A DNA stretch of 29,662 bases from a virus. The translations under genes were made by a program, and so were the position numbers. Position 1 is the first letter of the stretch. Each line of letters starts with the position of its first letter. The notes below the pieces were generated by a model that saw nothing but the letters and a program-made list of their open reading frames with translations, did not search any database and was not told where the DNA came from. Below are positions 3,235-29,662 of the stretch, in pieces. The stretch lies in IMG/VR virus record IMGVR_UViG_3300017482_000059; one strand, written 5' to 3'.

Positions 3235-3537
3235 TTACCTACACCCCCCATATATAACGAAATCCCTTACCGCTTCGTCTTCCGGTCTTTTAGACCCTAA
3301 TCCCCTATATCTATTAACGCATTCCTCGAATTCATTTCGTCTTATTCTCAGGGTCTTACCCGGCCTCAATTCGTCATGGTTATTCGAATAAACCACTTTT
3401 AACTCCACTCCCTCTCCCTTTATTTTCCACGATATTACGTATTTTTCTACATCTTTTTCAGAGGCCAACCCCATTAAATAAGACAAAAACGAATCTGAAC
3501 GGGTTATAGACGTCCTTCCCGACTTCCGGGTCACCAT
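3235..3537 (-). CDS. Hypothetical protein, 100 aa
   Basis: Preceded by the conserved promoter (TATA 3568-3575) and TGACCAAAAATG leader. Confidence 0.8.
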   Translation of the reverse strand: MVTRKSGRTSITRSDSFLSYLMGLASEKDVEKYVISWKIKGEGVELKVVYSNNHDELRPGKTLRIRRNEFEECVNRYRGLGSKRPEDEAVRDFVIYGGCR

Positions 3538-3648
3538 TTTTGGTCATTATTTGATTGTAAAAAGAGGTATATAAATTTTCAGGCCTCAACTCCTCTCACG
3601 TTTCAAGCTGACCGAATAAACAATAAAAAAACGAAACTCTTTAAAGGT

Positions 3649-4386
3649 TTATTTTAACGGGTATAGGAACAGGTACATGTAGCTGGGATAGAGCTCTATT
3701 TCGAGTCCTCCGTGCTCAGGACTCTCCACTACGGCCCTAGTCACGGCGGAAAACGGGTAAATTAATTCAGCATGACCCCCGAAGCTGTACAACCCGAACT
3801 TCATGACCTCATATTCGAAACCGACCTTATGGCCGTTTATCGTAATACCCTCCACTATTTCATATCTCATTGGTTTAAACAACATAGGAGGTGTCCTTAT
3901 TATATATAACCCGTCCTGCTGACCTATAAGCTTATAATTAATTACTTTCCCTTTTTTCGCATTGATATATACCTTTATGTCATTACCTTTTACTCTTATC
4001 AGCCACCTGTCCTTGTCCATCATTTTCTCGACTTTTCTCTCTACCTCCTCAACCTCATCATAAACCAGGGACTCCGTGGTTCCGTAGTCATACCAAGCCC
4101 TCCGTCCCAACCCGGCCGGGTTCACCTTCATGTCCCGGATATAGAATATACCTTCCACCGGTTCCAACTTACCGTCCCTTATCTTGAAGCACCCCTCCTC
4201 CAACGAATTACCCTCCTTCTTAGTCTCACAGTACACGAAGTCCTTTACGAGTGAAATGCTTACTCCTGTGTACCCATCTACGAATACCTTCGGCAGTTTT
4301 ACATGCTTTTCTCCTTTCTCCTTCAACCACATACTGTTTAGTACCATCCTGCCCAAGACCTCTTCAAGACCGGGGTTCCCGACCAT
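3649..4386 (-). CDS. Hypothetical beta-rich protein, paralog of 17568-18320
   Basis: Shares PKVF(V/I)DG, EGCF, PVEGIFYI, KVNPAG, IKVYINA.KGK and SP(E/D)HG with the 250-aa ORF; conserved promoter (4417-4424). Confidence 0.85.
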   Translation of the reverse strand: MVGNPGLEEVLGRMVLNSMWLKEKGEKHVKLPKVFVDGYTGVSISLVKDFVYCETKKEGNSLEEGCFKIRDGKLEPVEGIFYIRDMKVNPAGLGRRAWYDYGTTESLVYDEVEEVERKVEKMMDKDRWLIRVKGNDIKVYINAKKGKVINYKLIGQQDGLYIIRTPPMLFKPMRYEIVEGITINGHKVGFEYEVMKFGLYSFGGHAELIYPFSAVTRAVVESPEHGGLEIELYPSYMYLFLYPLK

Positions 4387-4441
4387 TTTTGGTCATTATT
4401 ATAGTGGTAAAAGAGGTATAAAAAGTTTATCCTTAAAGCCC

Positions 4442-4789
4442 CTAGTCGGATGGTTCTGGCTGATAGTCGATAAAGAGGTATGGGCTTTCGAGCCTAATTT
4501 GTATGTCTTTCCCCAATAATATTTCTCTCTTTTCTCCAGCTTTAACTATTGTTATCTTCTTCGCTATAAATAGGTCTTCGATTTTTATTATTGCATCGTC
4601 TTGGATCAAGACCATTACTGGTACCGAATTGAGAGTAACGGATTTAACCATAACCCATATTAATATCCTTGATTCATCGCCATAATAACTTATCCCTAAA
4701 CCTCTTAAATTTTCTATTAATTCACTCATTTTTTGCTTTCCAGTTCTAGTACTATCTACGTTTTTTCGGGCCATTTTAGAACTAGACAT
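4442..4789 (-). CDS. Small paralog family A protein, 115 aa (start reassigned from 4819)
   Basis: TATA 4825-4832 and GGGGTACAAAAAATG leader put the start at 4789; LRGLGISYYGDESRILI motif. Confidence 0.75.
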   Translation of the reverse strand: MSSSKMARKNVDSTRTGKQKMSELIENLRGLGISYYGDESRILIWVMVKSVTLNSVPVMVLIQDDAIIKIEDLFIAKKITIVKAGEKREILLGKDIQIRLESPYLFIDYQPEPSD

Positions 4790-5027
4790 TTTTTGTACCC
4801 CAAGATATCGTTTAACCAAGCCAATATATAAATCTTTACCTAGTTTAAGGCTAAAAAATAACCCTACATTATTAATAATACCTTATGCTTATATGCCACT
4901 TATGTTTCCTCTCGTTCATGGGATCGTTATCCATAAATAGTCCTTATCTTCATTGATAACACGTAATACTTTTTTGAAATCACTGAAAAATATTTTTATA
5001 TTATAAGGGGTATAAAAAGTTTATGCC

Positions 5028-5348
5028 TCAGGCCGGTATTACCCATAAATGGTCTCTGTAATACCCCGCTTCCGACTTTTTAGGGAAATAGAGGTAAAGC
5101 CGTTTACCGGTATCCTCATTAATTATTCGTAAGGATTTATCGAAGTCCCTAAACGATATGTTTACGTTGTCCTGGTAGACCTCTATATACCCGAACGTAC
5201 CGAGGGCCATACTATGTAGCTGGCCCCTTATTACCAATTCGGGAAATTCACCGGGAAGATAAGCAGGGAGGTAGGTAGCTTTAACACCTACACTTTTCAG
5301 GACTTCTAATGCCTGGGACGGTTTCTTCCACTTCACGAACTCGGACAT
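5028..5348 (-). CDS. Small paralog family A protein, 106 aa
   Basis: LKSVGVKA...LVIRGQLHSMALGTFGYIEV resembles 29313 VKGKLRSMGFSDFGYIIEI; conserved promoter (5379-5386). Confidence 0.8.
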   Translation of the reverse strand: MSEFVKWKKPSQALEVLKSVGVKATYLPAYLPGEFPELVIRGQLHSMALGTFGYIEVYQDNVNISFRDFDKSLRIINEDTGKRLYLYFPKKSEAGYYRDHLWVIPA

Positions 5349-5388
5349 TTTTGGTCATTATTAATAATGAAAAAGGGGTATAAAAAGT

Positions 5389-5706
5389 TTACATCACCGT
5401 TTTCGTTAATTGGTTCCTTATTCCGTTAATTAGCGGGAAATATGAATTAAACCGTTTTGCGAATAACCAATAACCGATGATTTTTGCATGGTCTTTTTCG
5501 TCTATTTCATCTATTCTCCAACCTCCTCTCAACATATTATAGATTCTGACTATATTTTTGGTGACATATTCTTCGGGTGATAAAACTTTACTGTATTTAG
5601 CATCACCTGGATATTGAATAACGGCGTCACCAGGAGGTGTGCCATCCCACTGACCGTCCTTAATCTTATATATCTTAATCATTGACCCTTGTAAATTATG
5701 TTTCAT
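5389..5706 (-). CDS. Hypothetical protein, about 105 aa
   Basis: Open frame with protein-like composition; start may be the internal Met (MIKIYK). Confidence 0.6.
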   Translation of the reverse strand: MKHNLQGSMIKIYKIKDGQWDGTPPGDAVIQYPGDAKYSKVLSPEEYVTKNIVRIYNMLRGGWRIDEIDEKDHAKIIGYWLFAKRFNSYFPLINGIRNQLTKTVM

Positions 5707-5933
5707 CTTGTAGTTTATGCCGATAACACGGTGAGAACGGATTTGGAAATTAGGGTCTTTTCGGCGTCCGGAGGTAGTTTAATTCCATATGTTCTTGTGT
5801 AATAGGTTAATGCGTCTTCATTTTTCTTACCGAATTTTCTAGACCAATCGATAAGACAAGGAATACCGAAAATTATGGTGTGAAGGTATAAATTATGATT
5901 ATTGAGTCCTGAAGGAGAAAAAACGGGTTTAAC

Positions 5934-8465
5934 TCAAAGCTCGCAGGTCTTACAACCACCCGCATAGTTCTCGGCTACTTCGACGAACTCCTTCTCAACC
6001 CTCAAGCCAGAAGGTAAGAGCTTGGACTCCTTCTGTCCTTTCTGAACCTTTTCTTCTCCCTCTTTCGCTTTTTCTTCCTTTACTTCTTTCTCCTTCTTTA
6101 TGCCGAAGTATATCACTTGGTGGCCCTTACTCTTGTCCCTATACACGGTTACGCCTTTAATCCCTAATTTCCACGCCATCATGTAGACCTTTTCAACCGT
6201 TTCTACGGGTTCTTCAGTCCTGAGGTTTATGGTCTTGGAAGTCCCTGAATCGTTCCACTGTTGCCAGCTAGCTTGGTGTAGCAAGTGGAACTCGGGTGAG
6301 ACCTCGTGGGCCGTCCTGAAGAGCCTCCTTATTGTTTTCGGTATATACGGGTTCTCACCTACTGTCCCGGTTTCAGCTACCTTCTCTATTACTTCAGGAG
6401 AATTTAATTCATATACCTTCAAGAATTCCAAGAACAGCGGGTCTATCTCTATGAACTTCCCAACACTGACGTTCCTGATAAAAGCTAATGCGAATAACGG
6501 CTCTATAGATGAAGACGTGCCGGCGATTATCGAAATAGTACCGGTCGGTGCTATGGAGACTACAGTCGCGTTCCTCAGGCCGTACTTTAACCTCTCGTCC
6601 TTGACTTTAGACACATCTATATTTTCCGCTACTTCAGCAATTTCCCTTACGTAATCGGAGACTTTCCCATCAACACCGGCTACCCTTAAAAGTCCGTCTA
6701 ATGGTTTAGCTAACTCGAATATGTCCTTATAAAGTCTGGCGTCATAAGACGGGAAGCTACCTTTTTCTTTCGCTAACCCTATTGACGCCATCACGGCATG
6801 GTAATAGATGAACTTAGCTAATTGGTATGACAAATATACGGCATCAATACTATCATAAGGTATTCCTAACTTAATCAACATCCTGGCTAAACCCATTACA
6901 CCTAACCCTACTTTCCTCGTCCTCTTCGTGGCCTCTTCTATTTGTTTCAACGGGTACCTATTGGCGTCTATCACGTTGTCCAAGAGCCTAATAGCTACCC
7001 TTATTGTATTAGCCAAATCGTCCCAATCAATAGTTGGCTTACCGTTGACCTCCTTGACGAACTTCTCGAGGTTTATTGAGCCCAAATTACAAGATTCCCA
7101 AGGTAGTAAAGGTTCTTCTCCGCACGGGTTAGTCGAGTTTATCTTACCTAAATACCATGTAGGATGTCCTCTATTAATTGTGTCTATGAACAATAAGCCC
7201 GGGTCACCGCTGTCCCATGCCCCTTTTATTATTTCTCCAAAGAGTTTTCTTGCGTTGACCCACTTAACGGTTGCACCTTCTTTTTCAGCAATAATTAAAG
7301 CCTCATCAACCGTTATAATAACGCTTTCATCGAGGTAAACCGAACCTCCCCTCTCCTCTAACTCCCTCAGTATTTCTTCTTGTACCCATCCTTCTTCCAT
7401 ATACCCTCTGGCCTTAGTAATGATGTATTCGTGACTTTTTCCCGCTACCAACGTCTTCCTCGGGTTTATTAAAGGTACATTTTCACCTCTCTCGACCTTC
7501 TCCATAAAGTAGTCGTAAATACCTACGGAAATGTTGAAGTTCTGTAATTGGACATCTTTCAGTTCACCTGTCTTAGACCTTATAAATTCTTCAATATCAG
7601 GGTGCCAGATATGCATTACTCCCATATTAGCTCCCCTCCTTTTACCTCCTTGTTTCACTACGTCAGTACTCACATCGAATACTTTCATGAACGAGACCGG
7701 GCCGGAAGCTACTCCTGCGGTCGAAGCTACTATATCCCCTTTAGGTCTGAGTTCACTGAAGTCGAAGCCGGTACCTCCACCTTGTTGGTGAATTAGTGCC
7801 ATAGCCTTTAAAGCGTCGTAAATACCGTCTCCATCAGGAGCGGTCATCGAATCTTTAATTGGAACCACGAAGCAGGCTGAAAGTACCCCCATCCTAGTAC
7901 CCGCATTCATCAAGGTCGGCGAGTTAGGTAAAAATTTTAGGTCACTCATTATAGAATAAAACTCTTCCTCTATATTCCTTATATCTTCCTCCGACTTACC
8001 ATATTTCCGTTCAACTTCAGCTAAGAACTTCGCGACTCTCCTAAACATCATCTGCGGAGTTTCAATAAACCTTAATGTATTCGGATCCTTGAGGAGGTAC
8101 CTGGACTCCAGAACCTTGAGGGCGTTGTAGCTTAGTAAAAGATCCTTGGGGTCGAAGTCCTTCCACTTACCTTTACCATAAACGTGGTTGTAGATCCTAG
8201 CCAGCACGAACTTCTTAGCGAGCTCGAAGAACCTCGCGTCCTTGACGCCGTTCTCTACGAGGTTCCTCTCGATTATGTCAGCCACAGTCCTAGCCTCGAT
8301 CACCCCGTCCTTGGAGGACTTGGCTATGTCGTTGAATATGTTGTCCGCTATTTCGTCGGGGATGGGAAGCTTGGAGAGTATTTTCTCGGGCTTGAACTCT
8401 TCCCTTCTTCCGTCCCTCTTTATGACCGAGACCTTCCTCAGCTGTACGAGGATAGTGGACTCCAT
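5934..8465 (-). CDS. nrdJ: Class II (adenosylcobalamin-dependent) ribonucleotide reductase with N-terminal ATP cone
   Basis: ATP cone VIKRDG..E.F; [33 protein letters not shown] (thiyl Cys), [17 protein letters not shown]-terminal CKTC. Start likely the ATG at 8465 rather than 8552. Confidence 0.95.
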
Positions 8466-8607
8466 AGTTGATCGGATCCAAATTCCGGGTTTTCGACTAC
8501 AAAAAGGTTTCCGACATGAGTTATGGACGGATCCCCGTAACTCCGACGTCAAAAAACCTGCATGAAAAATATAGAAAAAACATCTCCGTTTTGAGAAACC
8601 TTAACCG

Positions 8608-9075
8608 TCAACTCGGACTTCGAATTGCCCTCATTATTTCTTCCAGTCTCCTCTCGATTTCGTCGACCTCTTTATCAGACACGGGCTCACTCTCCGGTTC
8701 TCCGAGAGCGATAATGTGTTCAAGGAAGACGTTGGTAGCGTCGTACAGTGCCCTTAATATATTATTTTTTAACTGTCCGTCGCCGACCAGGACGGCGAGT
8801 TTATATAACTTCTCAATATCCCTTAATAACCTAGTGGTGTGACCGTAATCGTCATAACCGGCCTCTTTCCTTAGGTCGTCCCAATCGATGTCTTTTAAAA
8901 CATTACCATCGAGTAACGCCATTTCCCATTCCATTAAGACACTCGTATATTTTCTGAGGTATTGGTACAAACTCCTCCTCGTCGTGTCGTTTTTCGAACT
9001 CTCCACATAAAAAACCAATTTATTTAGAACCCATAACAGGTCTCCTATCTTTTTAGGGTCAAGGATTTCGACCAT
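8608..9075 (-). CDS. Hypothetical alpha-helical protein, 155 aa
   Basis: Conserved promoter (9106-9113) and GACCGAAAATG leader. Confidence 0.8.
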   Translation of the reverse strand: MVEILDPKKIGDLLWVLNKLVFYVESSKNDTTRRSLYQYLRKYTSVLMEWEMALLDGNVLKDIDWDDLRKEAGYDDYGHTTRLLRDIEKLYKLAVLVGDGQLKNNILRALYDATNVFLEHIIALGEPESEPVSDKEVDEIERRLEEIMRAIRSPS

Positions 9076-9240
9076 TTTCGGTCGATATAATGATAATGAA
9101 AATAGTATTTAAAGTTTTATCCTCCTCACGGTTTCAAGTTCTTTATAAAAACCCATACCACCTTCTTTCATCCCAAGGTCTTTAATAAAAAACTTCCTTA
9201 TTTTACTCACTCTCATAACCCGAGAAATCATATTTAAATT

Positions 9241-9380: not shown

Positions 9381-9382
9381 AA

Positions 9383-18471: not shown

Positions 18472-19428
18472 ATGAGGATGCTGATCTTAGGTCTGGACTC
18501 ACTTTCATATTCTGTAGCGTACCAATTAGGGAAGGAATTCGAAATCGTGGTCGTAACTAACGATATCCCCCCTTCTCACCCGGTAAAACGGTACTATTAT
18601 AACGACCTCACATATATGAAAACGGTGTTCGCGAAGGTAGACCCGCTTAATGAACCGGATAGGTTGAGGTATTTAATGAAAATCAGTGATGTAGTTGTGA
18701 ACTTTATCAGCGTATTCGGTAAGGATGAAAACGAAATGATGAAAGCGAACTACGAAGCCCCGAAATCGTTAGTGAATGTCCTGAAAGACGTGAACCCTGA
18801 CGCATTGTTTATCCATATTAGTACGTTTTCGTTAGGTCAAAAATCCAAACACGTTGAAGAGGAGTACCCGCACGGTACTAACATGGAACCGGGAAACGCG
18901 TTCGAAAAAAGTAAATTGATGGGGGAGAAGGAAGTGATGAAAGCCGATATAAGGAAAGTAATATTGAGGCCGACTGTGGTTTACGGTATAACGAACGCCT
19001 ATAAACATTTCGTAGAAACGTATAAGTTTGCGAAAAGGGGTATAATACCCGGTATAAACGTTAAAATCCCGACGGTCGACGTCCGATATCTGGCTTCGGT
19101 TATCAAAATATTAGCTAACGAGAGGCCGAAGTCCGATTATTTCTATGTTACCGAGTGTGAAAAGGTAAGCATGTCCGATATTTTAGACCTCTATTGTGAA
19201 GCTTTAAATAAAAGGTGTGTTAAAATACCGGTACTTAAACCGGCATTGGATGTCATGAAACGGCTGTACCCGGAAGCCGGAGTGACCTTGAAATACAGCG
19301 ACTACGAGTTCTCGTGTAAGAGGACGAAAGAAATTTTAGGTGATATAACATTTATAAAGGAAGACATAATAGAAAACGCCAAATTTTTAAGGTATTTGGA
19401 GACCCAGGACGAATTAGTCCCGGAATAA
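18472..19428 (+). CDS. Extended SDR / NAD-dependent epimerase-dehydratase family protein, atypical
   Basis: N-terminal LILG, VVVNFI, FIHIST, FEKSKLMGE (YxxxK-like with F), ILRPTVVYG. Confidence 0.8.
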   Translation: MRMLILGLDSLSYSVAYQLGKEFEIVVVTNDIPPSHPVKRYYYNDLTYMKTVFAKVDPLNEPDRLRYLMKISDVVVNFISVFGKDENEMMKANYEAPKSLVNVLKDVNPDALFIHISTFSLGQKSKHVEEEYPHGTNMEPGNAFEKSKLMGEKEVMKADIRKVILRPTVVYGITNAYKHFVETYKFAKRGIIPGINVKIPTVDVRYLASVIKILANERPKSDYFYVTECEKVSMSDILDLYCEALNKRCVKIPVLKPALDVMKRLYPEAGVTLKYSDYEFSCKRTKEILGDITFIKEDIIENAKFLRYLETQDELVPE

Positions 19429-19443
19429 TACCACCTCACTTCT

Positions 19444-19734
19444 TCACCTCTCGTCCTCCTCGATTTCATCGACCCTTATTATCCTCTTTAAAGTTTTCAC
19501 GAATGTTACCTCAAGTTCTATTAATAATACGGTTAAAATAATGATAATTCCTAAAGTTATACTCATGAATGAGAGGAAACCCTCCAGCTCTGTACCGCTC
19601 ATATAATATACCTTCTCGGAATTCAGCTGTACCGGGCTATCAAAGACATCTCCGAAAAACATCACCATATATATAATATCCGCTATAACCGTTAATATTA
19701 TGCTTATTCCTAAAGCTTTTATAATTTTGTCCAT
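19444..19734 (-). CDS. Small two-TM membrane protein
   Basis: Two hydrophobic stretches; ATG start. Confidence 0.7.
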   Translation of the reverse strand: MDKIIKALGISIILTVIADIIYMVMFFGDVFDSPVQLNSEKVYYMSGTELEGFLSFMSITLGIIIILTVLLIELEVTFVKTLKRIIRVDEIEEDER

Positions 19735-19823
19735 ATATGTCCGTAAACGCGGTCTCTATTTAAGAGTTTCGCTAAATACCCGGAAAGCCGGCATGAAAGT
19801 TTAAAAACGGCTCCATAACATAA

Positions 19824-20247
19824 ATGGTAAACGTAAATATCGAATTATGACTATTACCGGCTCCTGACTCATGAGGGAGATAAAGGGAGTACCGAAACCT
19901 ATCACGTCGTTGAAATAGAGGAATTAACAGTTAATTATATAAATACAATAATAATAACACATATATTTTTGTTATTGCCGGTCTTACTGAACCCGATAAA
20001 AGGACTTATTATATTTACCGTGTCTTCAATATTCATGTTTGCACTCATTAAAAACAGTACCTTACTCTTCTTCAATCCATTGATTTTCGTGACCGGCAAC
20101 CACGTCTACAGGATAAAAGTAAGTGAACATAACAAAACGATTTACGTAATATATAAGGAGAAGATTCAAGAAGGTGATTACATCAAAATTAAACATTTTT
20201 ATGAGAGTATTTACCTTGATGAAAAGATTATAAGGAAAAAAGAATAA
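19824..20247 (+). pseudogene. Membrane protein gene, probably frameshifted near the 5' end
   Basis: The frame of the tracked ORF 19969-20247 is open back to 19837 without a start codon; ATG 19824 is in another frame and stops after 8 codons. Confidence 0.4.
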
Positions 20248-20275
20248 ACCGTGACAATGACTTAATGATGTTTGA

Positions 20276-20419
20276 TCAAGAACTTCTATATAAGAATTTC
20301 GGTACCGTAACTCCCGTTTGTCATTGATATTTCCCTTTGTACAGGTTCTCCACGGGAATTAGAGCTCTGGCGAGAACCAAGTGGAGGAACCTAACTCCTA
20401 TTTTCAATTTCAAAGGGAA
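20276..20419 (-). pseudogene. dcd: dcd 3'-end remnant
   Basis: Translates as [41 protein letters not shown] versus intact [42 protein letters not shown]; in-frame stop, no 5' part. Confidence 0.9.
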
Positions 20420-20460
20420 TTAATAAAATTACATGTTGTCTGAATTAACTTTCTACTTTA

Positions 20461-20769
20461 TCAACTCCATTTACTATAAAACAATCCTTTTATCTTTACA
20501 TGTTCTTCAAGCTTGGCCTTTACCTTATCACTTTTGAAGCCAATACATGAAATCGACATAATTTTTTTCTTACCTACATCATAATCTATTTCACATACCA
20601 AGTTGTAATTAATAGACCTCAATTTCAATTTATAAATTATTCCAGGAATAATTTCTTCCTTAAAGAATATCCTGACGCCATCTACTTCCATCACGAGTGT
20701 CCCGTCTTCCAGCTTTTTAAAAGGGAAAAAGTCTATCATTCCATTATCACTACAAGACCTTCTTTGCAT
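20461..20769 (-). CDS. Hypothetical protein (third of an overlapping three-gene operon)
   Basis: Overlaps the upstream ORF; start may be the internal MIDFF. Confidence 0.65.
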   Translation of the reverse strand: MQRRSCSDNGMIDFFPFKKLEDGTLVMEVDGVRIFFKEEIIPGIIYKLKLRSINYNLVCEIDYDVGKKKIMSISCIGFKSDKVKAKLEEHVKIKGLFYSKWS

Positions 20770-21074
20770 GAGAGCTTCTTGTTTTTATATAATGGAATAA
20801 CTTTTTCTTCAATTGCCTTCGCTATACATGGAAGGTATTTGATATATTCTTTAGGTACCTCGATGACTTCATAAAAGTAGAGCTGTCCTTCTAAGAAAAA
20901 GGGGACTCTATACTCTCCCAAACTCGTCTTGTCGTCTAAATAATCAACAAAAAGTACCCTCTCCTGATTCCTTATCAGGAGAATTACATTCTTCAGAAAC
21001 GCAAGGAACCCTTTTATTTCCGATTTGAAAAAGGTTTTCCTTTCTAGCTTGACTTTAATTTCCACACAATTCAC
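20736..21074 (-). CDS. Hypothetical protein, 112 aa
   Basis: 4-nt overlap with the upstream gene. Confidence 0.7.
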   Translation of the reverse strand: MNCVEIKVKLERKTFFKSEIKGFLAFLKNVILLIRNQERVLFVDYLDDKTSLGEYRVPFFLEGQLYFYEVIEVPKEYIKYLPCIAKAIEEKVIPLYKNKKLSCKEGLVVIME

Positions 21075-21475
21075 CCAAATAGCAACTTTTGAAGCTTAGC
21101 GTAATAATAGAGCAAGAACATCTGAGCAACATTCAATGCCATGATTGAAACCATGATCAAAACCAAGAATATCGGAGGAGAGAAGGCTATCATGTACGCT
21201 AGATATATTGTTAACGCTAGTACGGACTTCGCTATTCCGTAATACTCGGCAAGCTTGAGACTCATAGCTATCATAGTTAGTATAATAGCATTAAATATAC
21301 CTGATATTAGTGGTACACTAACTAATACCGACCTCTGTATAACATCATTTACAGGTAACCCTATATATGATAGAATCGAGTAAAGTGTTACCGATAGTAT
21401 TATATTTATTGAATAAAATGTAATTGCGGATATTAAAATTGTCTTGCCCATTTTTCTTAGGTCTACCTCATTCAT
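21071..21475 (-). CDS. Four-TM membrane protein
   Basis: Four hydrophobic segments; GGAGGTGG RBS and TTTTAAATA upstream. Confidence 0.75.
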   Translation of the reverse strand: MNEVDLRKMGKTILISAITFYSINIILSVTLYSILSYIGLPVNDVIQRSVLVSVPLISGIFNAIILTMIAMSLKLAEYYGIAKSVLALTIYLAYMIAFSPPIFLVLIMVSIMALNVAQMFLLYYYAKLQKLLFG

Positions 21476-21529
21476 TGTCGTTTTACATCCACCTCCGTAT
21501 TTCTTATAGGCTCCGAATATTTAAAAAAT

Positions 21530-22081
21530 TTAAACAAGGTTATTACCCTCGACTAAGAGACTCGAGGATTTGAACTTCGGTACCGTAACTCCTGTTTGTC
21601 CTTGATATTTCCCTTTATACGGGTTCTCCACAGGCGTTAGAGTCCTAGCGAAAATCAAGTGGAGAAACCTGGTTCCCCTCCTTAACTTAATAGGGAACTC
21701 CGAGCCTATCACCTCAATGGTCAGCTGACCCTCGAAGCCCGCGTCCACTATAGTAGGAGGAATAAAGAGACCCAACCTCGCGAAAGAAGACCGTAAATTC
21801 ACGAAAGCTATTACGTCGTTAGGCAATTTTATGTATTCTTCGGTGACCGTTAAAATATGTTCATTCGGATATATCACGAACTCCTCTCCCCTCTCCTTTT
21901 GGAAATAGTTAGGGTCTGGGTTTTCGGGGTCAAATGGTTTTTCAGTTTTCTTAAACCTGGCTATTTCGTTGCCGATCCTTAAGTCTACCCCGTTCTCCCT
22001 TATCGTGTCTTCACTTAGGGGTTTAATCACTATCAACTCCTTTTCCAAATAATATTTCAAGTCTCTGTCTCCCAGGATCAT
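21530..22081 (-). CDS. dcd: dCTP deaminase
   Basis: [48 protein letters not shown]. Confidence 0.95.
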
Positions 22082-22160
22082 GAACCTCCCGATATCTGTG
22101 GATTGCCGGGATTTAAATTTAAACCGGAAGACCTTTCAAAACATGAAAACCGTCTTAATG

Positions 22161-23006
22161 TTAGATATTATTGAACCCGATGTTAGTTTTTCTCCCATTG
22201 ATCTCCTTTTCGATGTTTACCGATATCAGTTCGTCCAAATTAACGGTATACAACACTACTCTCACCTGTTGTGGGAGACTGACCAAATACAACATGGCGT
22301 TCTCTCCTTGCAACAACCTGTTACCGTCGCTGACTTCAATGCTGGAAATAGAACCGTTCTTTATTATCATCTTCCCATTAAGTTTATCACCTCTTATTAC
22401 GACTACCCCGTATTCGATGTCCTTCATTGTCTCGGTAATCTTCGGAAGGACTTGACTGAATAGGCCCTGTTCCTCCATGAGCTTTAACGGAGTTACTTCC
22501 GTGATTCCGGCTTCATTTTTCGTATTCAAATAGTGTTTCACATATGGTACTATATGGTCTTCTACTAAATGCTGTGCTAACATGAACGGGGACTTCCCTA
22601 ATATCTTTTCTAACATCGACATCTTATAATCGCATGACGTGTTGATCCTCATCAGGGTTTGGTTAGGCCTTATCGCTGAAGCTTCCAACCTGGCTTCCCA
22701 TATAAATTTCCTTTCATTAGTCCACCCCCTATACACGATGCTCCCGGACTCGTATATAGGCCCTTCAAGTTCTCCTAAGAAATAACTGATTCCCGTCTCC
22801 GGGGTGCCGAATATATATATTGATAGGAATTTATTGGAAAACCCGCTCAATTTCCCGAAATCAACGTATTTTCCTTCCTTCGGGTCATATACTCTAAGCA
22901 GTCCTATATGTCCGAACACACCCGCCGTCAGAAAAGGGTCAGTCATAAGCCTTAATGCGTCCTCTTTCTGTAAATTAATAATCAGTTCTTTTGAATATGA
23001 GGGCAT
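22161..23006 (-). CDS. Sulfolobales-type protein with probable START/SRPBCC-like N-domain and a second C-terminal domain
   Basis: L..MTDPF....VFGHI start and a beta-rich pattern typical of helix-grip folds; recognised by eye only. Confidence 0.55.
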   Translation of the reverse strand: MPSYSKELIINLQKEDALRLMTDPFLTAGVFGHIGLLRVYDPKEGKYVDFGKLSGFSNKFLSIYIFGTPETGISYFLGELEGPIYESGSIVYRGWTNERKFIWEARLEASAIRPNQTLMRINTSCDYKMSMLEKILGKSPFMLAQHLVEDHIVPYVKHYLNTKNEAGITEVTPLKLMEEQGLFSQVLPKITETMKDIEYGVVVIRGDKLNGKMIIKNGSISSIEVSDGNRLLQGENAMLYLVSLPQQVRVVLYTVNLDELISVNIEKEINGRKTNIGFNNI

Positions 23007-23145
23007 TACGTTCCCCTATTATAAAAGTCCCCGGCCCCGGTTTATAAACTTTATGAGAGCGGTTTTCCCCATTATACGGTTTTATATTAAATTTTCGAAG
23101 ATAGAAAAATTTTTATTCTTGGAATTATAATTTGTAACATGAGAA

Positions 23146-23409
23146 ATGGGGACTGAAGCGGGTTTCCCTGATAAGGATATAAGAGGACTACTCCAATTCA
23201 TGAGGGTCATAATTTTACACGCTGATAATAAAACTATTGAAGAGATTTCCGAAGCCACCGGCATTAGACCCGAATACGTTGAGGGCATATTAAGAATAAT
23301 TACGGGGATGGGAATAGCTGTCGAATCGGGTAACAGGTTCTATATTGAGGACGATATGAGGGACTCTTATAATTCGTCCATAATGAGGTTATTGAACGCA
23401 ACCGAATAA
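23146..23409 (+). CDS. Winged helix-turn-helix protein
   Basis: KTIEEISEATGIRPEYVEGILRIITGMGIAVESGNRFYI. Confidence 0.75.
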   Translation: MGTEAGFPDKDIRGLLQFMRVIILHADNKTIEEISEATGIRPEYVEGILRIITGMGIAVESGNRFYIEDDMRDSYNSSIMRLLNATE

Positions 23410-23450
23410 AAAAATACCTTTTCTTTTTCCTGTCCCGGAAAACTAAACCT

Positions 23451-23852
23451 TTAAGGAGTCGCCGGTATTACGTCTTTATTATCGTTTTTGTTTTCCGGGA
23501 CACCATCACTTATTTCGGGTACTTCAGCAATAATCCGCACCTTCCTTATCCCCTTTTCTAGCAATTCTTTTACTATCTTCTTTTTCGGGATTACTATTGC
23601 GTATAAGGGGACTCTTTCCCCGTTCTTCCTTTTATAGTCCGAATGCTTGTAGACCCTTGATTCGTTCACGAAATACCTTTTATCCTTTGTAACAATCTCT
23701 ACATTCTTAAGTGTTTTCACTTTTCCTAATATATCATTATACTCTATCGAGAATACCACGAAATACAAAGAATATTCCTTCTTCTCGCCGGTCTTCTTGT
23801 CCTTTACCTTTACCTTTTTCCTCCTAATCGTCATCTCGTCCTCTATTATCAT
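23451..23852 (-). CDS. Basic protein with two AbrB/SpoVT-like beta repeats (putative DNA-binding)
   Basis: GEKKEYSLYFVVF and GERVPLYAIVIPKK repeats; conserved promoter 23885-23892. Confidence 0.55.
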   Translation of the reverse strand: MIIEDEMTIRRKKVKVKDKKTGEKKEYSLYFVVFSIEYNDILGKVKTLKNVEIVTKDKRYFVNESRVYKHSDYKRKNGERVPLYAIVIPKKKIVKELLEKGIRKVRIIAEVPEISDGVPENKNDNKDVIPATP

Positions 23853-23929
23853 TTTTATCCACCATTTTTATGTACCATTTTCGGTATTTAAATTTAACTG
23901 GAAAATAAGGCATAAAACTCGGGTACCCT

Positions 23930-24259
23930 TTATCTGGCTGTGCCCGGAAACATTATTATTAAATAACCGTCCAGGTACCTCACGATTACCTCCAGATCCC
24001 TCCCCAGGTAAATCGAATCCGGTTCCACATCGTCAATATCGTCATCCTCATCGTTATCGGCTATCTCAATAAAATTATCACCGTTATACCTCGAATAATA
24101 TATGGACTTTTTCCCATTCGTTATGACTATTTCCTGTACGCCGAAAAATTCTACGTTTTTGACTTCACCTTTTACTTTTATCGTGTTAGTTTCGGGAGAG
24201 TACTCGACCTCGAACCCTTCCTCCTCCAGGACTTCCGCTAACCTTGAGGGGTTCACCAT
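23930..24259 (-). CDS. Small paralog family A protein, acidic, 109 aa
   Basis: LEEEGFEVEYSPETNTIKVKGEV; promoter 24291-24298 and TGACCGAAAATG leader. Confidence 0.8.
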   Translation of the reverse strand: MVNPSRLAEVLEEEGFEVEYSPETNTIKVKGEVKNVEFFGVQEIVITNGKKSIYYSRYNGDNFIEIADNDEDDDIDDVEPDSIYLGRDLEVIVRYLDGYLIIMFPGTAR

Positions 24260-24337
24260 TTTCGGTCAGTGCAAATTGGAAGAAAAGGGGTATAAAAAGT
24301 TTTCGGCACCATATTTACGAGTTCTAAGGGTATAAAA

Positions 24338-24431
24338 TTTAAATATCCGCCCGTTATAATATAATATTGAGAATGGGGAGACTACCGAGAATTTTTCTCA
24401 TTTTCGTAATAAAATTTCGGTTATGAGGAAA
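24338..24431 (+). ncRNA. Orphan promoter + 29-nt core, unit U1
   Basis: TATA 24338-24345; core AATGGGGAGACTACCGAGAATTTTTCTCA at 24372-24400; downstream ATGAGGAAA can pair with TTTTCTCAT. Confidence 0.5.
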
Positions 24432-24547
24432 CCTCTTATTCCTAATAATAAGGACATAAACGGGAAATTTTGACATTATATCCACGAGCTATAGGGCATA
24501 AAAATTTAAATACCCGTTTTTACTACATTATAACCGGGGACAAAAAA

Positions 24548-24898
24548 ATGGCCCAGGTACTCGTGAACCCCAAAACTTATATAAAAAGGGTAAACGTTTT
24601 CCACAACTCTTTAGGTGTTATAGTTAGTGCTGATATATTAAGTAAATCAAGACCGGGTCTGTCGCACTATACCAGAATCATGATAGACCCGAAAACCAGT
24701 GAAATAGTGAAATTGTCCTGTGATTGTGAAGGGTTTACTTTCAGAAAGAAGTGCTGGCACTTATATCTATTAAAAGGGCTTATTCAGACAGACCTAAAAG
24801 AAGAAGTCTTTAAAGAAGAAATAAATTGGTTTAAGGAAAAAATGCTGAGCTGTGAAATAAAATTAGCCCGAATTCGTGATATTGTATACAATGAATGA
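24548..24898 (+). CDS. SWIM zinc-finger protein, 116 aa
   Basis: SCDCEGFTFRKKCWHL (CxC...CxH). Start reassigned from 24470 because the extension reads through the promoter (TATA 24505-24512). Confidence 0.85.
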   Translation: MAQVLVNPKTYIKRVNVFHNSLGVIVSADILSKSRPGLSHYTRIMIDPKTSEIVKLSCDCEGFTFRKKCWHLYLLKGLIQTDLKEEVFKEEINWFKEKMLSCEIKLARIRDIVYNE

Positions 24899-24953
24899 AA
24901 ACGTAAATTGATACCCTTTTTGGCCATTATTTTATACCCGAATGGGGGATAAA

Positions 24954-25062
24954 TTTATATACCCTTTTTACTAATATCATAATAGGGAGACTATCGACCA
25001 TTTTTCTCATTCTTGAGATTAAAATCCAAAGACGAAATTTTTTGCTGTGCATATACCCTATT
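24954..25062 (+). ncRNA. Orphan promoter + 29-nt core, unit U2
   Basis: TATA 24954-24961; core AATAGGGAGACTATCGACCATTTTTCTCA at 24981-25009; the 5' AATAGGG can pair with CCCTATT at 25056-25062. Confidence 0.5.
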
Positions 25063-25207
25063 ATAATAAGGAGATAATGGTTGTAATTTCTATTAGTTTA
25101 AGTGAAATAAAATGGGTATAGTGACTGAAATTATGGCATTATCTATCGTAGAGTTGAGGCATAAAAATTTAAATACCCCTTTCACACTATTATATCTCAG
25201 GACAAAA

Positions 25208-25528
25208 ATGACCGACGTCGCCACTGAAATGATATCCCGAATCAGGTCAGCGTTAGATGAATTTGGAGTACCCTATTCAATTAAAAACGGCTCTATTTAT
25301 ATAAAAGCCGACCTAATCGTAGATTTTCAGGAGTCCAGCTCGTTCATTTCGTTTAGATATATTTCGAGAAACGGTGTGGAAATTGTATTTTCTGTAAACG
25401 TACACGGTGACACGAAATTTATTGAATTAAAGGCACCTGACGGGAAAAGGAAAATATTGCACTTAGGAAGAAACGTTTACTACAATTTACAAGACAAGTA
25501 TATTAAATGTAAATATTTCGAGTATTAG
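25208..25528 (+). CDS. Small paralog family A protein, 106 aa
   Basis: LDEFGVPYSIKNGSIYIKADL; TATA 25168-25175; start reassigned from 25112. Confidence 0.8.
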   Translation: MTDVATEMISRIRSALDEFGVPYSIKNGSIYIKADLIVDFQESSSFISFRYISRNGVEIVFSVNVHGDTKFIELKAPDGKRKILHLGRNVYYNLQDKYIKCKYFEY

Positions 25529-25567
25529 AAATTAGTACTCCTTTTGGCCTTATCGTGGGGTATAAAA

Positions 25568-25685
25568 TTTAAATACCCGTCCGACATATAACTGAATAGG
25601 GGGGCTATCGAATATTTTTCTCATTTTCATGATATTTTTACAACCATGAAAAACCCCTATACCATATATTATAATAATATGGTAT
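25568..25685 (+). ncRNA. Orphan promoter + 29-nt core, unit U3, with nested stems
   Basis: TATA 25568-25575; core at 25595-25623; TTTTCATG/CATGAAAA (25624-31 / 25645-52), ATAGGGG/CCCCTAT, then a perfect 9-bp IR at 25659-25685. Confidence 0.55.
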
Positions 25686-25810
25686 ATGGTCACAATTTAT
25701 TTCGTTGCCGGTAACTAAATTGGGGCTATTTTTATCCTCTATCTTATCGTCTTTATGGGGTATAAGATTTAAATATTTGAACCGACTACTATTATATCGG
25801 GGGTCAGGAA

Positions 25811-26203
25811 ATGGAAGTAGACATTTACGCAGTGGGGTCTCCTTATTTGTGCAAGGACAATGTCCTAATAATTGAAGAACACGGTTACGGGAACATCATA
25901 TTGGAAATCCGAGGCAGTGGAATAAATAAGCCCGGAAAGGAAATTTTAGATAGATATAGATATGAAATACCTTCTGAGGAGTGCAGGCCTTTATTAAGAA
26001 AAGACCTAAAGGAATTGAACATAAGGCTCAAGAAGATAGATTATATATTACTAGATCAGAGAGACGAATATACAATATATGAGGTCACCTATAGAGATTT
26101 AAAGGCTTACATTGTAGAAAATTGGAACGGATATAGTGCCGAATTGAAATTCGAAGTCTTTAAGGAGAAGGACGACGCGGTGTCTTGGGTCTTTTCAAAA
26201 TAA
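25811..26203 (+). CDS. Hypothetical protein, 130 aa
   Basis: Conserved promoter 25768-25775. Confidence 0.8.
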   Translation: MEVDIYAVGSPYLCKDNVLIIEEHGYGNIILEIRGSGINKPGKEILDRYRYEIPSEECRPLLRKDLKELNIRLKKIDYILLDQRDEYTIYEVTYRDLKAYIVENWNGYSAELKFEVFKEKDDAVSWVFSK

Positions 26204-26359
26204 GGTTTTTTACATATCCCTTTATCTCAATAGCGGTATACCTTATATTATTATAATAGGGTTACCGAACCCCTATAATTTTTGGCACCATTGTAAGCCT
26301 GAAAGGGGCATAAAAATTTAAATATTTGAACCGACTACTATTATATCGGGGTACAAAAA

Positions 26360-26695
26360 ATGGAAACCCCGCAAGAGGTCTCCGAATTAATGAGACATCT
26401 GAAAATGGCCGGGTTCAAAGCAAAGCAAAATAATGGAATAATATCAATAAAAGGAAAAATGGATATAGTGTACAAAAAAGATAATGATTTAGATATAGAG
26501 ATAGTATATAGAGATTTGAAGTTAGCATATATGGAAAGAGGAGATAGGACGAAGATAATGCTATTAAAAATCGATAAAATTATAAAAGATACTAAAGAAC
26601 AAAAAATAGTTGATTATTTCATATTGAAAATAATAGAATTCGATAGGAAATTCGAGGTATGGTTCAGTGAAGACAGTTTCAAGATAAGGTACTGA
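26360..26695 (+). CDS. Small paralog family A protein, 111 aa
   Basis: LKMAGFKAKQNNGIISIKGKM; promoter 26317-26324. Confidence 0.8.
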   Translation: METPQEVSELMRHLKMAGFKAKQNNGIISIKGKMDIVYKKDNDLDIEIVYRDLKLAYMERGDRTKIMLLKIDKIIKDTKEQKIVDYFILKIIEFDRKFEVWFSEDSFKIRY

Positions 26696-26777
26696 TTTTT
26701 TCCCTCTATCTTAAGGACATATGGGGCATAAAGATTTAAATACTTGAAGTGTTTACTATTATATCGGGGGCACAAAA

Positions 26778-27248
26778 ATGACCGGTAAAAGGTTGTTAGT
26801 CCTCGACCTCGACGGTACCCTCATGGACTCCCAGAGGAGGTGGGAAGAGTGTCAGAGGTTATACCCCAATAACAAAAAGGAGTTCTGGAATTGCTTCCAG
26901 AGCGAGAGGTTTATGGACTTAGACAGCCCTAAGGAAAATGTGGTCAGTTATGCCAAATCACTAATAAATGAAAATACGGTAACAGTAATCGTTAGCGGGA
27001 GGTCTGAGAAGCAATTGAACAAAACCCAAGAACAATTAAACAAAATAGGGATTATCCCAAATGAGATATACCTAAGGAAGAACGGAGATTTCAGGAAAGA
27101 TTTTCAATTCAAGGGCGAGATAATTAACCAATTAATTCAGAAATATATCCCGGCTGAAGTAATCGTAATCGACGACTCAGATGATGTAATAAACCACATA
27201 TCTCAGAATTACCCGAATATAAAAGTAATCGACTCGAAGAAGTTATAA
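26778..27248 (+). CDS. HAD phosphatase resembling the polynucleotide kinase 3'-phosphatase domain
   Basis: DLDGT motif I, VSGR motif II, R..GDFRKD..FK, IDD motif IV. Confidence 0.85.
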   Translation: MTGKRLLVLDLDGTLMDSQRRWEECQRLYPNNKKEFWNCFQSERFMDLDSPKENVVSYAKSLINENTVTVIVSGRSEKQLNKTQEQLNKIGIIPNEIYLRKNGDFRKDFQFKGEIINQLIQKYIPAEVIVIDDSDDVINHISQNYPNIKVIDSKKL

Positions 27249-27303
27249 TTTTTCGAAAACTTGAACCGTTTCTATTTAAATACTGTGACCGAAAATATTA
27301 ATA

Positions 27304-27416
27304 ATTTTTCTCAGAACAGTAATAATAATCCTATTGGATTTCTTGTTCAGAAATGAGAAAAATATTCCATACCCTCCCCATTTTCAATATATTATAACGC
27401 GAAACTGATATTTAAA
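27304..27416 (-). ncRNA. Orphan promoter + 29-nt core, unit U4, with long hairpin
   Basis: TATA 27409-27416; core at 27354-27382; ATTTTTCTCA (27304-13) / TGAGAAAAAT (27354-63) IR plus GAACA/TGTTC. Confidence 0.55.
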
Positions 27417-27536
27417 TCTTTATGCCCCATAAGTCATAATTATAAGGGATAAACTTCCCTTTAACTAAATGAGTGAATACCTTATATTATAATAATAGGA
27501 ATACAGAGGTCGAATTTTTCTCACTCATATTTGTCA

Positions 27537-27562
27537 AAATTGGAGCTGGGGAGCTCCAATTT
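27537..27562. repeat. 26-bp palindrome, copy 2 (intergenic)
   Basis: Identical to 2345-2370 and in the same orientation; lies just downstream of degenerate core U5 (27494-27523). Confidence 0.95.
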
Positions 27563-27674
27563 CTCTTACGAATTTGAAACAAATAACCCTAAATTTCGAC
27601 ATTATTGTAAGCCGGAAAGGTGCATAAAAATTTAAATACTTGAAATGACTATACTACAACCCGGGGGTCACAAA

Positions 27675-27989
27675 ATGGTGAACCCCGTGAACCAAAAACC
27701 CACGATAAAAATAATGACAATATCTTCGGAAGACGACGGTAATGTTTTCGTACAAGCCGAGATCCAGAGCAGGACAAACCCAAATGAATTTCATATAACT
27801 AAAGTAAAGATAGACGGTGAGAACGGCGAGACAAGTTATGCCTATTGTAATTGTAAAGGGTTCGAATATAGGAAAAGGTGCCATCATGTAGAAGCGTTAA
27901 AGGAATTTATGATCAACAATTATAAGGACAAATTAGCAGAAGCCATTGAGAAAAAGAAAAGACTGGCGAGAGAGGCTTTAGAGTGGTGA
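27675..27989 (+). CDS. SWIM zinc-finger protein, 104 aa, paralog of 24548-24898
   Basis: YCNCKGFEYRKRCHHV; TATA 27631-27638; start reassigned from 27645. Confidence 0.85.
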   Translation: MVNPVNQKPTIKIMTISSEDDGNVFVQAEIQSRTNPNEFHITKVKIDGENGETSYAYCNCKGFEYRKRCHHVEALKEFMINNYKDKLAEAIEKKKRLAREALEW

Positions 27990-28155
27990 TTTTTAATTTT
28001 ATTTGAAACCAAATTTTTAGCTATATCTTTACAGTATTTTTCCAATTCTTGAACAGAAATTATGATGCAGTTTTCGTTTACATGATAAATATTCAATATT
28101 CCTTATCTTTTGTATAATACGTAAATTTCCCCCTTTTGCATTTCTATTACTATCA

Positions 28156-28218
28156 CGCAAAAAATAGTCCGCAGTCTCCCTATTTTTATTATATTATAAC
28201 ATGAAACAAGTATTTAAA
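28156..28218 (-). ncRNA. Orphan promoter + 29-nt core, unit U6
   Basis: TATA 28211-28218; core AATAGGGAGACTGCGGACTATTTTTTGCG at 28156-28184. Confidence 0.45.
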
Positions 28219-28297
28219 TCTTTATGCCCCATTTTAGGGAAGCATAAGGATAGAAAACTTTAAATACCTCTTTTGATATAACTATACTTGACCCCAA

Positions 28298-28570
28298 ATG
28301 GCGGGGAAAACGGTCTGGGCTTGGGAAAAGGTCCATAAGATGGGTCTAATTTTTAAGGAAGACAACATATCCGTAACCATTAAAGAAGACCCCGACTTCC
28401 CCTTTGCGTTTATAGTAAAGGTATACGAAGGTGATGGGCTCGTTTATAAAGATATAATAAAATACGAAGAGGTGGGGGTCAACAACATGAACGAGTTACG
28501 AGAGAAATTAATAGAAACTCTCGAAAAAGTAACGGGGATAAAATATAATGTTGTGAGGACGTTCGGGTAA
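28298..28570 (+). CDS. Hypothetical protein, 90 aa
   Basis: TATA 28259-28266 and TGACCCCAAATG leader. Confidence 0.8.
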   Translation: MAGKTVWAWEKVHKMGLIFKEDNISVTIKEDPDFPFAFIVKVYEGDGLVYKDIIKYEEVGVNNMNELREKLIETLEKVTGIKYNVVRTFG

Positions 28571-28607
28571 AACCATTTTTTAAGGTGTATTGTTTTTATC
28601 CCTAAAT

Positions 28608-28663
28608 TGGGAAAAATCCTCGATAGTCCCCCTATATTATTATATAACAAGGAGGTATATAAA
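28608..28663 (-). ncRNA. Orphan promoter + 29-nt core, unit U7
   Basis: TATA 28656-28663; core TATAGGGGGACTATCGAGGATTTTTCCCA at 28608-28636. Confidence 0.5.
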
Positions 28664-28746
28664 GATTTATCCCCCATCTTATCGTCTTTATGGTGTATAA
28701 AGATTTAAATACCCGTAATGAGTATACTACAACCGGGGGTCACGAA

Positions 28747-29061
28747 ATGACCGTTCAAAACCTCCAGGAATTCCTTAACGCATTAAAGGAATTGGGGATA
28801 AAATATGAGGGTAATGGGGACGGCAGGACGATAACCATTAAGGGAGAATTGGACTCGGTAAACACTATTAATAACCAATTATATATCTCAATAAGGCAGA
28901 AGGAATATGTTATTGAATATGCCGAAATTGATAACAGATATCTATTAGCCGTAATGTTGCCGAATAGCGAAATGAATGTCGAATATTCAATATGTTCAAT
29001 AGAATTTCAGACGAAACCGCATGTCTATTATAAATCGGGACGCCTTTATATAAACTACTGA
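28747..29061 (+). CDS. Small paralog family A protein, 104 aa
   Basis: LKELGIKYEGNGDGRTITIKGEL; TATA 28704-28711; start reassigned from 28690. Confidence 0.8.
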   Translation: MTVQNLQEFLNALKELGIKYEGNGDGRTITIKGELDSVNTINNQLYISIRQKEYVIEYAEIDNRYLLAVMLPNSEMNVEYSICSIEFQTKPHVYYKSGRLYINY

Positions 29062-29128
29062 TTTGATTTTTCCTTAACTAAAAGTTAACCCATATTTCCT
29101 ATATTATAATATAGTGAATATAGTCATA

Positions 29129-29234
29129 ATTTTTCTCATTTTTATGATATTATTTTGGCTGAATTTTGATTACAGTAGTGAGAAAAATATTCGATAGCCC
29201 CCCTATATTATTATATAACAAGGAGGTATATAAA
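29129..29234 (-). ncRNA. Orphan promoter + 29-nt core, unit U8, facing degenerate unit U9
   Basis: TATA 29227-29234; core at 29179-29207 matches U3 at 28 of 29 nt; ATTTTTCTCA (29129-38) / TGAGAAAAAT (29179-88) IR. Confidence 0.55.
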
Positions 29235-29312
29235 TTTTTAGGCATTATGACCACGTAAGAAAAAGGCATAAAAATTTAAATACCTCACCCGCCGTAACTA
29301 TACCTGACCCGC

Positions 29313-29662
29313 ATGGACTCCCGAATACCTAAAGGGGTGAGACCGGTTCTGAACTTCCTCCGCTTTATCAGTTCGTTAAGGGAAATAGGGCTTGAAACCA
29401 CTCATAACGAAGATGATAGGGAAATAAGGGTGAAAGGAAAACTGCGATCTATGGGTTTCAGCGACTTCGGATATAATATAGAAATCGTCTCGAAGGATAT
29501 ATTATTTAATTATTCGGAATATAAAGACCTCACAACGATATCTATATGGAAAATTGAAAATGTAAAACAAATATTATTGAAAAAGATTTGGCTGAGAGGA
29601 AGTTTACGTGTAATGTACGATCAACAATACCTCAGGGTTATATATGGGGAAATAAATGAGAT
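29313..29662 (+). CDS. Small paralog family A protein, truncated by window end
   Basis: MDSRIPKG...LREIGLETTHNEDDREIRVKGKLRSMGFSDFGYIIEI..., open to the end; TATA 29275-29282. Absent from the ORF track. Confidence 0.8.
   Translation, partial: MDSRIPKGVRPVLNFLRFISSLREIGLETTHNEDDREIRVKGKLRSMGFSDFGYNIEIVSKDILFNYSEYKDLTTISIWKIENVKQILLKKIWLRGSLRVMYDQQYLRVIYGEINE

Follow-up and report, generated by a model that had tools for sequence, protein, structure and literature searches.

A repeated strong-promoter and leader cassette marks accessory genes, some with anti-defence homologues, in an uncultured Sulfolobales mobile element

Promoter and leader cassettes in the window

We analyzed a stretch of 29,662 nucleotides (hereafter, the window) from the IMG/VR virus record IMGVR_UViG_3300017482_000059, which is DNA of an uncultured, virus-like Sulfolobales mobile element where one strong promoter, with a short leader, is repeated in front of many small genes. 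This promoter/leader cassette is a real, specific and conserved cis-element, and an unusually large, clean example of a published kind. A preliminary description of the same DNA had listed 21 genes with a shared transcription factor B recognition element (BRE) and TATA box 37-44 nt before the ATG, followed by a leader, and we confirmed this arrangement at all 21. At each of these starts, a purine-rich, A-rich BRE (1.4-1.7 bits in its A-rich columns) lies directly upstream of a TATA box of the TTTAAATA type, whose first base is 37-44 nt from the ATG; the box matches TTTWWATA exactly in 20 of the 21 cases, with CTTAAATA in the remaining one. There are two fixed leader classes, one of which is carried by every listed gene: class 1, with a distance of 37-40 nt from TATA to ATG and GACCNAAAATG, and class 2, in which this distance is 43-44 nt and the leader consists of a G run and then an A-rich stretch. 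The leader reported without a promoter at 18472 is also present, its TATA-like stretch being weak, and the two arms do point outward, on the minus strand at 3.2-10.4 kb and, between 24.5 kb and the window end, on the plus strand. The list of about 22 genes held for all its entries and was incomplete, lacking the weaker members that start at 15880 and 23006 and an orphan promoter at 5018 (all on the minus strand), as well as seven promoter copies without an open reading frame (ORF) within 24328-29244.

A 22-nt matrix trained on the listed sites gave, at its lowest training score, 30 matches in the window, 9 of them outside the training set; 100 Markov shuffles yielded 0.09 matches on average. 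Individual patterns were enriched as well: AWAARNTTTWWATA occurs 7 times (0.37 expected), GGGGNNNNRAAATG 4 times (0.22 expected), and GACCNAAAATG 9 times exactly and 15 times with at most one mismatch (2.7 expected). The conserved region also takes in some 12 nt of G-rich sequence upstream of the TATA box and 4-8 nt downstream, where the flank reads CCYC or TTGAA. Because the CCYCTTTT flank is tied to class 1 leaders (6/10 class 1 versus 0/11 class 2 cassettes), at least two cassette subtypes can be distinguished. Five promoter pairs stand back to back, with their TATA boxes 39-41 nt apart. The BRE/TATA junction is spanned by a 24-bp quasi-palindrome in the window (9/12 positions), and in a relative from another metagenome (L058) two promoters (7560-7680 and 8480-8541) have their BRE/TATA enclosed by a perfect 8-bp inverted repeat; these symmetric sequences are a candidate operator for a dimeric repressor.

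The units are listed below, with the evidence for each; family A denotes a paralogous family of about seven members.

3235..3585, minus strand: class 1 unit, 100-aa gene (phrog_15325); TATA to ATG 38 nt, exact GACCAAAAATG
3649..4434, minus strand: class 1 unit, 245-aa AcrIIIB1 homologue (BLASTP to SIRV2 gp48, E 8e-7)
4442..4842, minus strand: class 2 unit, 115-aa family A-like gene (TATA to ATG 43 nt; alignment)
4960..5028, minus strand: orphan promoter copy (at 5018), no ORF of at least 40 aa behind it (matrix match)
5028..5396, minus strand: class 1 unit, 106-aa family A gene (promoter, leader, alignment)
8608..9123, minus strand: class 1 unit, 155-aa gene (promoter, leader)
9383..10487, minus strand: class 1 unit, 351-aa gene (phrog_33543), 64-66% identical to ATSV and SYV1 proteins
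10544..11154, plus strand: class 1 unit, 187-aa gene (promoter, leader)
11287..13046, plus strand: probable operon headed by promoter and class 2 leader, with a 383-aa gene, a small acidic ORF and an AcrIII-1/B116-like gene
15542..15930, minus strand: weaker member, 112-aa gene with start 15880, absent from the first list (degenerate TATA, G-run leader)
16770..17500, minus strand: class 2 unit, 226-aa gene, divergent from the 17519 unit (promoter, leader, matrix)
17519..18320, plus strand: class 1 unit, 250-aa AcrIIIB1 homologue (BLASTP to SIRV2 gp48, E 8e-19)
18461..19428, plus strand: NAD-dependent epimerase gene with class 1 leader, without strong TATA
22161..23056, minus strand: weaker member, 281-aa gene with start 23006, absent from the first list (TTTATAAA box, G-run leader)
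23451..23902, minus strand: class 2-like leader unit, 133-aa gene (phrog_14319)
23930..24308, minus strand: class 1 unit, 109-aa family A gene (promoter, leader, alignment)
24328..24400, plus strand: ORF-less promoter copy; conserved core begins at the predicted transcription start
24495..24898, plus strand: class 2 unit, 116-aa SWIM zinc-finger gene, 49% identical to SMV1 gp17
24944..25010, plus strand: ORF-less promoter copy
25158..25528, plus strand: degenerate class 2 leader unit, 106-aa family A gene
25558..25625, plus strand: ORF-less promoter copy
25758..26203, plus strand: class 2 unit, 130-aa orphan gene
26307..26695, plus strand: class 2 unit, 111-aa family A gene, structure modelled
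26725..27248, plus strand: class 2 unit, 156-aa HAD/PNKP-type phosphatase
27350..27426, minus strand: ORF-less promoter copy
27621..27989, plus strand: class 2 unit, 104-aa SWIM zinc-finger gene
28150..28228, minus strand: ORF-less promoter copy, back to back with the 28298 unit (41 nt between the TATA boxes)
28249..28570, plus strand: class 1 variant leader unit, 90-aa gene, ortholog in L084
28600..28673, minus strand: ORF-less promoter copy, back to back with the 28747 unit
28694..29061, plus strand: class 2 unit, 104-aa family A gene
29172..29244, minus strand: ORF-less promoter copy, back to back with the 29313 unit
29265..29662, plus strand: class 1 variant leader unit, gene truncated at the window end (224 aa in a longer contig)

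Each unit has its own promoter, and the units are mostly monocistronic and small, the majority without a Pfam match. A run of at least five T residues lies within 80 nt after the stop codon in 16/21 units, compared with a background of 20%. In a 72,851-base contig identical to the window over 22747-29662, the right arm continues for 5 kb past the window end (L081, 6916-11905), with about seven more promoter/leader units. This plus-strand array of small genes reaches within 600 bp of the contig end and closes with an inward-facing gene that is preceded by a promoter and a long hairpin-forming leader. For two genes, the position of the promoter and leader favours a start codon other than the called one, namely, the ATG at 25208 (106 aa) rather than the metagenome gene call at 25112 (138 aa; gene to 25528), and 11338 rather than 11383.

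Predicted transcription start, leaders and ORF-less copies

The aspA-parB-parA operon and the gene at 19734 have their TATA boxes 29-30 nt before the start codon, a leaderless arrangement that calibrates the distance from TATA to the transcription start. With this spacing, transcription of the cassettes is predicted to start on the first base of the leader, so that the entire 5' untranslated region (UTR) would be conserved, its length being about 8 nt for class 1 and about 12-13 nt for class 2. The A/T-rich stretch just before the predicted start fits the promoter-proximal element published for Sulfolobus. Pairing of the leaders with the 3' end of 16S rRNA, computed with an assumed anti-Shine-Dalgarno sequence, would be moderate for class 2 (-5.4 to -7.9 kcal/mol), similar to the genes in the window that carry a Shine-Dalgarno (SD) sequence, and slight at most for class 1 (-0.7 to -4.1 kcal/mol). 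Other signals are used elsewhere in the window: the dCTP deaminase gene and the gene for a 451-aa ATPase have a GGAGGT-type SD, and the ribonucleotide reductase (RNR) gene has another promoter.

Each ORF-less copy is followed, right at the predicted start, by a conserved core of about 29 nt that opens with a G run and includes a T5 tract; this core had no match in Rfam and no copy in three Sulfolobales genomes. Given that the G run occupies the same position in these copies as in the leaders, it may have a role in transcription or at the 5' end of the RNA, and not only in translation. A more far-reaching possibility, which we consider quite unlikely, is that the two alternative conserved 5' UTRs (the 8-nt SD-less and the 12-13-nt G-run type) split the roughly 30 genes into translational or temporal sub-classes, with the ORF-less copies making small counter-defence RNAs that begin with the same G run. 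If this were true, no larger anti-defence regulon would yet have been seen in an archaeal mobile element, and none before it would have had an RNA arm.

Specificity, conservation and gene content

The cassette is specific to the element. AAARNTTTWWATAC occurs 12 times in the 29.7-kb window versus 1, 9 and 9 times in the three Sulfolobales genomes (1.5-2.3 Mb), and GACCNAAAATG 9 times versus 4, 1 and 4; in these genomes, neither pattern exceeds its reversed-pattern control. The preliminary description had named an equal frequency of the motif before host genes as an outcome that would count against it, and, with both motif and leader at control level in the three genomes, this is not what we found.

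Comparison of the cassettes with each other points to selection on the cis-element itself. In pairwise comparisons, the BRE/TATA block has a mean identity of 0.61 and the leader one of 0.47, compared with 0.28 in the coding sequence and 0.31 further upstream, and cassettes that are 70-81% identical precede unrelated genes. As block identity is far above the coding background and similar cassettes stand before unrelated genes, the similarity is attributable to selection rather than to shared gene descent. Two relatives from other metagenomes, L058 (ENA) and L084 (JGI 3300045890), whose coding DNA is about 69-73% identical to that of the window, keep the promoter, the spacing and both leader classes, before orthologous genes and before others. 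For the L084 ortholog of the 28298 gene, the stretch from TATA to ATG is identical at 38/40 positions, whereas the coding sequence is 65% identical. Strain variants, which are 99.5-100% identical to the window, gave no footprint because their differences fall in the RNR region. A scan of IMG/VR for the promoter together with the class 1 leader returned 52 single matches, which are chance-like and include no related contig, and a search of viral contigs for related loci with an AcrIIIB1 homologue and the 383-aa protein found no match. A query for sequencing runs that cover 19700-29662 listed none.

The gene content of the window is mosaic and includes a partition operon of the aspA-parB-parA (pNOB8) type. 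Its dCTP deaminase is 66% identical to SIRV2 gp23, and three of its proteins are shared with ATSV. The class II RNR (5934-8552) is 87% identical to the enzyme of Sulfolobales archaeon Acd1; this gene is probably host-derived and hints at a Yellowstone-type Sulfolobales host. In JGI metagenome 3300017562, the right part of a 72,851-base contig matches window positions 22747-29662 at 100% identity, and the identity of this contig to 7585-28320 is 99.5%. Nearly all the differences from it lie at 7.5-9 kb, in the RNR region, which suggests a recombination boundary. By megablast against phage records, the only nucleotide match to a deposited virus was 460 bp of SMV2 gp48; megablast against plasmid records found no match, nor did Rfam and tRNA scans of the window. 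A segment of about 328 bp at 5587-5913 is missing from a 98-99% identical contig of another sample (L059), and the 105-aa ORF that overlaps this segment is probably a gene fragment, as it aligns with the C-terminal part of SMV2 gp48 at 79% identity. In one strain-variant contig (L080), a 339-bp segment that corresponds to 24583-24921 and holds the greater part of a SWIM gene has the opposite orientation, with 100% identity, between 10-bp inverted repeats, representing either a real DNA inversion or an assembly artefact.

Some cassette members are homologous to known or predicted anti-defence proteins. The products of the genes at 3649-4386 and 17568-18320 (about 240 aa), with 44% identity to each other, are full-length homologues of SIRV2 gp48 (AcrIIIB1) in BLASTP searches, and this full-length homology argues for their membership in the AcrIIIB1 family. 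A tblastn search of phage records with an AcrIIIB1 homologue from the window retrieved only the rudiviral SIRV gp48/gp49 family, of which SIRV7 gp49 and its homologues in SIRV4, 5, 6, 10 and 11 are listed as AcrIIIB1 (PMC11065993); there was no sequence match to this homologue in the PDB. The two small SWIM zinc-finger proteins (116 aa and 104 aa) encoded under the motif resemble the predicted ADG.54 family. The AcrIII-1-like gene (12699-13046) matches PF08960 (E 1.8e-10, 41.3 bits versus a cut-off of 26); it has its own SD and no TATA box of its own, lies downstream of a motif-bearing gene and is probably in an operon under the motif. Family A has no convincing match among solved structures, as judged from a confident AlphaFold model (pLDDT 92.6) in which a meander beta-sheet is accompanied by one helix: no PDB entry was matched by Foldseek at E<=0.001, the best VIA-align Z score was 7.8, which is background level, and a profile search of PDB sequences found none. 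For the 133-aa protein, the ESM Atlas contained only beta-barrel look-alikes with TM<0.5.

Proposed function of the cassette and comparison with known systems

The cassette opens with a G-rich flank, which is followed by a purine-rich BRE and a consensus TATA box; next come a short flank rich in C or T, a promoter-proximal stretch of A/T-rich sequence and, at the predicted transcription start, a fixed block. Behind it lies a small gene, in most units with an oligo-T tract at its end. Most likely, strong recruitment of the TATA-binding protein and transcription factor B would ensure that about 30 accessory genes are expressed at a high level, in a coordinated manner and probably as immediate-early genes; many of them would inhibit host defence, and a putative repressor that binds the shared flanks would turn them off later. 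That the cassette is such a strong early device, driving about 30 accessory genes with many anti-defence functions among them and later repressed, is in our view the best explanation and a probable one. Judged from the sequence, its layout corresponds to that published for anti-defence genes of Sulfolobales viruses, with a strong promoter, shared flanks (evident from the 22-nt matrix and the block identity) and single or first-in-operon genes.

It might instead be a house promoter, that is, the element's standard strong promoter for monocistronic accessory genes, with no link to anti-defence and no set stage. We hold this to be unlikely, while taking seriously that the motif heads about half of the transcription units in the window, including the HAD/PNKP phosphatase gene and the ORF-less units, and that most members have no recognizable function. 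However, other genes in the window rely on other signals (the leaderless par operon and 19734, the genes with a GGAGGT SD, and the RNR gene), two AcrIIIB1 homologues belong to the set, and in SIRV2 a cassette of the same kind marks 11/13 early genes (PMC11065993). The presence of paralogous families (family A with about seven members, two SWIM proteins and two AcrIIIB1 homologues), together with the near-identity of some neighbouring cassettes even in the spacer, would also be expected if the cassettes were a passive relic of gene duplication, or of cassette shuffling or recombination junctions, under no regulatory selection. This origin is decidedly improbable, given that the most similar cassettes precede unrelated genes whereas true paralogues have less similar ones, that coding identity remains at background while the BRE/TATA block stands out, and that the cassette and both leaders persist in relatives diverged to about 70%. 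Chance matches in A/T-rich intergenic DNA have a negligible probability: although the window contains 62 TTTWWATA sites in DNA with 34-40% G+C, this origin was rejected on the number of full-matrix matches (30 versus 0.09), the fixed distances to the ATG and the conserved leaders.

Several observations weigh against an early anti-defence role of the cassette. The early timing rests on analogy with other Sulfolobales viruses, and the transcription start, the repressor and the function of most members are inferred. Because the matrix was trained on the listed sites, only the 9 extra matches and the pattern counts are independent evidence for the motif. The AcrIII-1-like protein, although a homologue, is a doubtful ring nuclease: it is 39% identical to SIRV2 gp37 and has SR where SIRV2 gp37 has GH, the conserved motif that includes the catalytic His in SIRV1 gp29. 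A phmmer search of the window proteins with Aca8, SMV2 gp37, the AcrID1 family, SIRV2 gp47 and other SMV2 candidates found no match at E<1, and the motif-bearing genes encode no recognizable DNA-binding domain except the SWIM fingers; the SWIM proteins are possible regulators, and an 87-aa gene at 23146 that resembles a winged helix-turn-helix protein lacks the motif. The presence of the HAD/PNKP-type phosphatase, the conserved 351-aa protein and the seven ORF-less units among the members implies that the set is not purely anti-defence. Finally, the published method comes with a warning about false positives, and the core promoter also stands before a few host genes with high expression (PMC11065993). 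The suggestion of a candidate early anti-defence regulon made in the preliminary description is thus supported in part, by the published layout and the AcrIIIB1, SWIM and AcrIII-1-like content, with the phosphatase and the 351-aa protein as weak points; that most of the ORFs are anti-defence is an extrapolation.

The concept of a regulon with a shared strong promoter is not new, having been published already (PMC11065993), so that the window opens no new question in this respect. Its practical value lies in about 30 candidate genes in one uncultured Sulfolobales element, including two AcrIIIB1 paralogues outside rudiviruses and lipothrixviruses, the seven-member modelled family A and the two SWIM proteins, and in a clean cis-anatomy (predicted start, two leaders, back-to-back pairs) that could be used for reporter work or a repressor hunt.

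Bhoobalan-Chitty et al. 2024 described virus-specific sequences around a strong BRE/TATA promoter as a mark of early anti-defence genes of Sulfolobales viruses, and virus-specific versions of the consensus predicted 354 anti-defence genes in 57 viruses along with 6 genomes assembled from metagenomes (MAGs) (PMC11065993). In SIRV2, a consensus that surrounds a strong promoter with BRE and TTTAWATA is common to 11/13 early genes, with acrID1, acrIIIB1 and aca8 in this group (PMC11065993). The window resembles this regulon in its purine-rich BRE and TTTAWATA, shared genome-specific flanks, a distance of about 40-44 nt to the ATG, a G-rich then A-rich leader, and small, mostly single genes clustered in the arms, acrIIIB1 among them. 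It differs in unrelated flank and spacer sequences, about 30 units versus 11, the lack of an Aca8 homologue, the extra class of SD-less 8-nt leaders, the seven ORF-less units, the outward-transcribed arms, the pNOB8-type partition operon and the host-like RNR gene. Bacterial phage acr-aca operons follow a common logic of strong early anti-defence expression followed by repression, but with sigma-70 promoters and operons in place of many separate archaeal promoters, and no Aca was found in the window.

In our scans, the early-type promoters of SIRV2, SMV2 and SYV1 have the same architecture, with other flanks and with leaders close to both classes; the motif was absent from ATSV. The class 1-type leader of SMV2 gp52, 39 nt from the TATA box, is near-identical, SYV1 has the class 2-type succession of G run, A-rich stretch and ATG, and the quasi-palindrome over the BRE/TATA junction in the flanks of the window can be compared with the inverted repeats of SMV2 (PMC11065993). 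The published motifs of SMV2, SYV1 and Sulfolobales/Thermofilum MAG contigs (PMC11065993) share the architecture, whereas their upstream operator sequences differ, few proteins are shared, and no leucine zipper like SMV2 gp37 was found in the window. The generic Sulfolobales core promoter likewise has a 6-bp BRE, TTTAWATR, an A/T-rich proximal element and the same spacing to the predicted start; Sulfolobales mRNAs are mostly leaderless, a rule that the par operon of the window follows. In contrast, the cassettes combine a core that is near-consensus at every copy with extra conserved flanks and a fixed 5' UTR, predicted at 8-13 nt.

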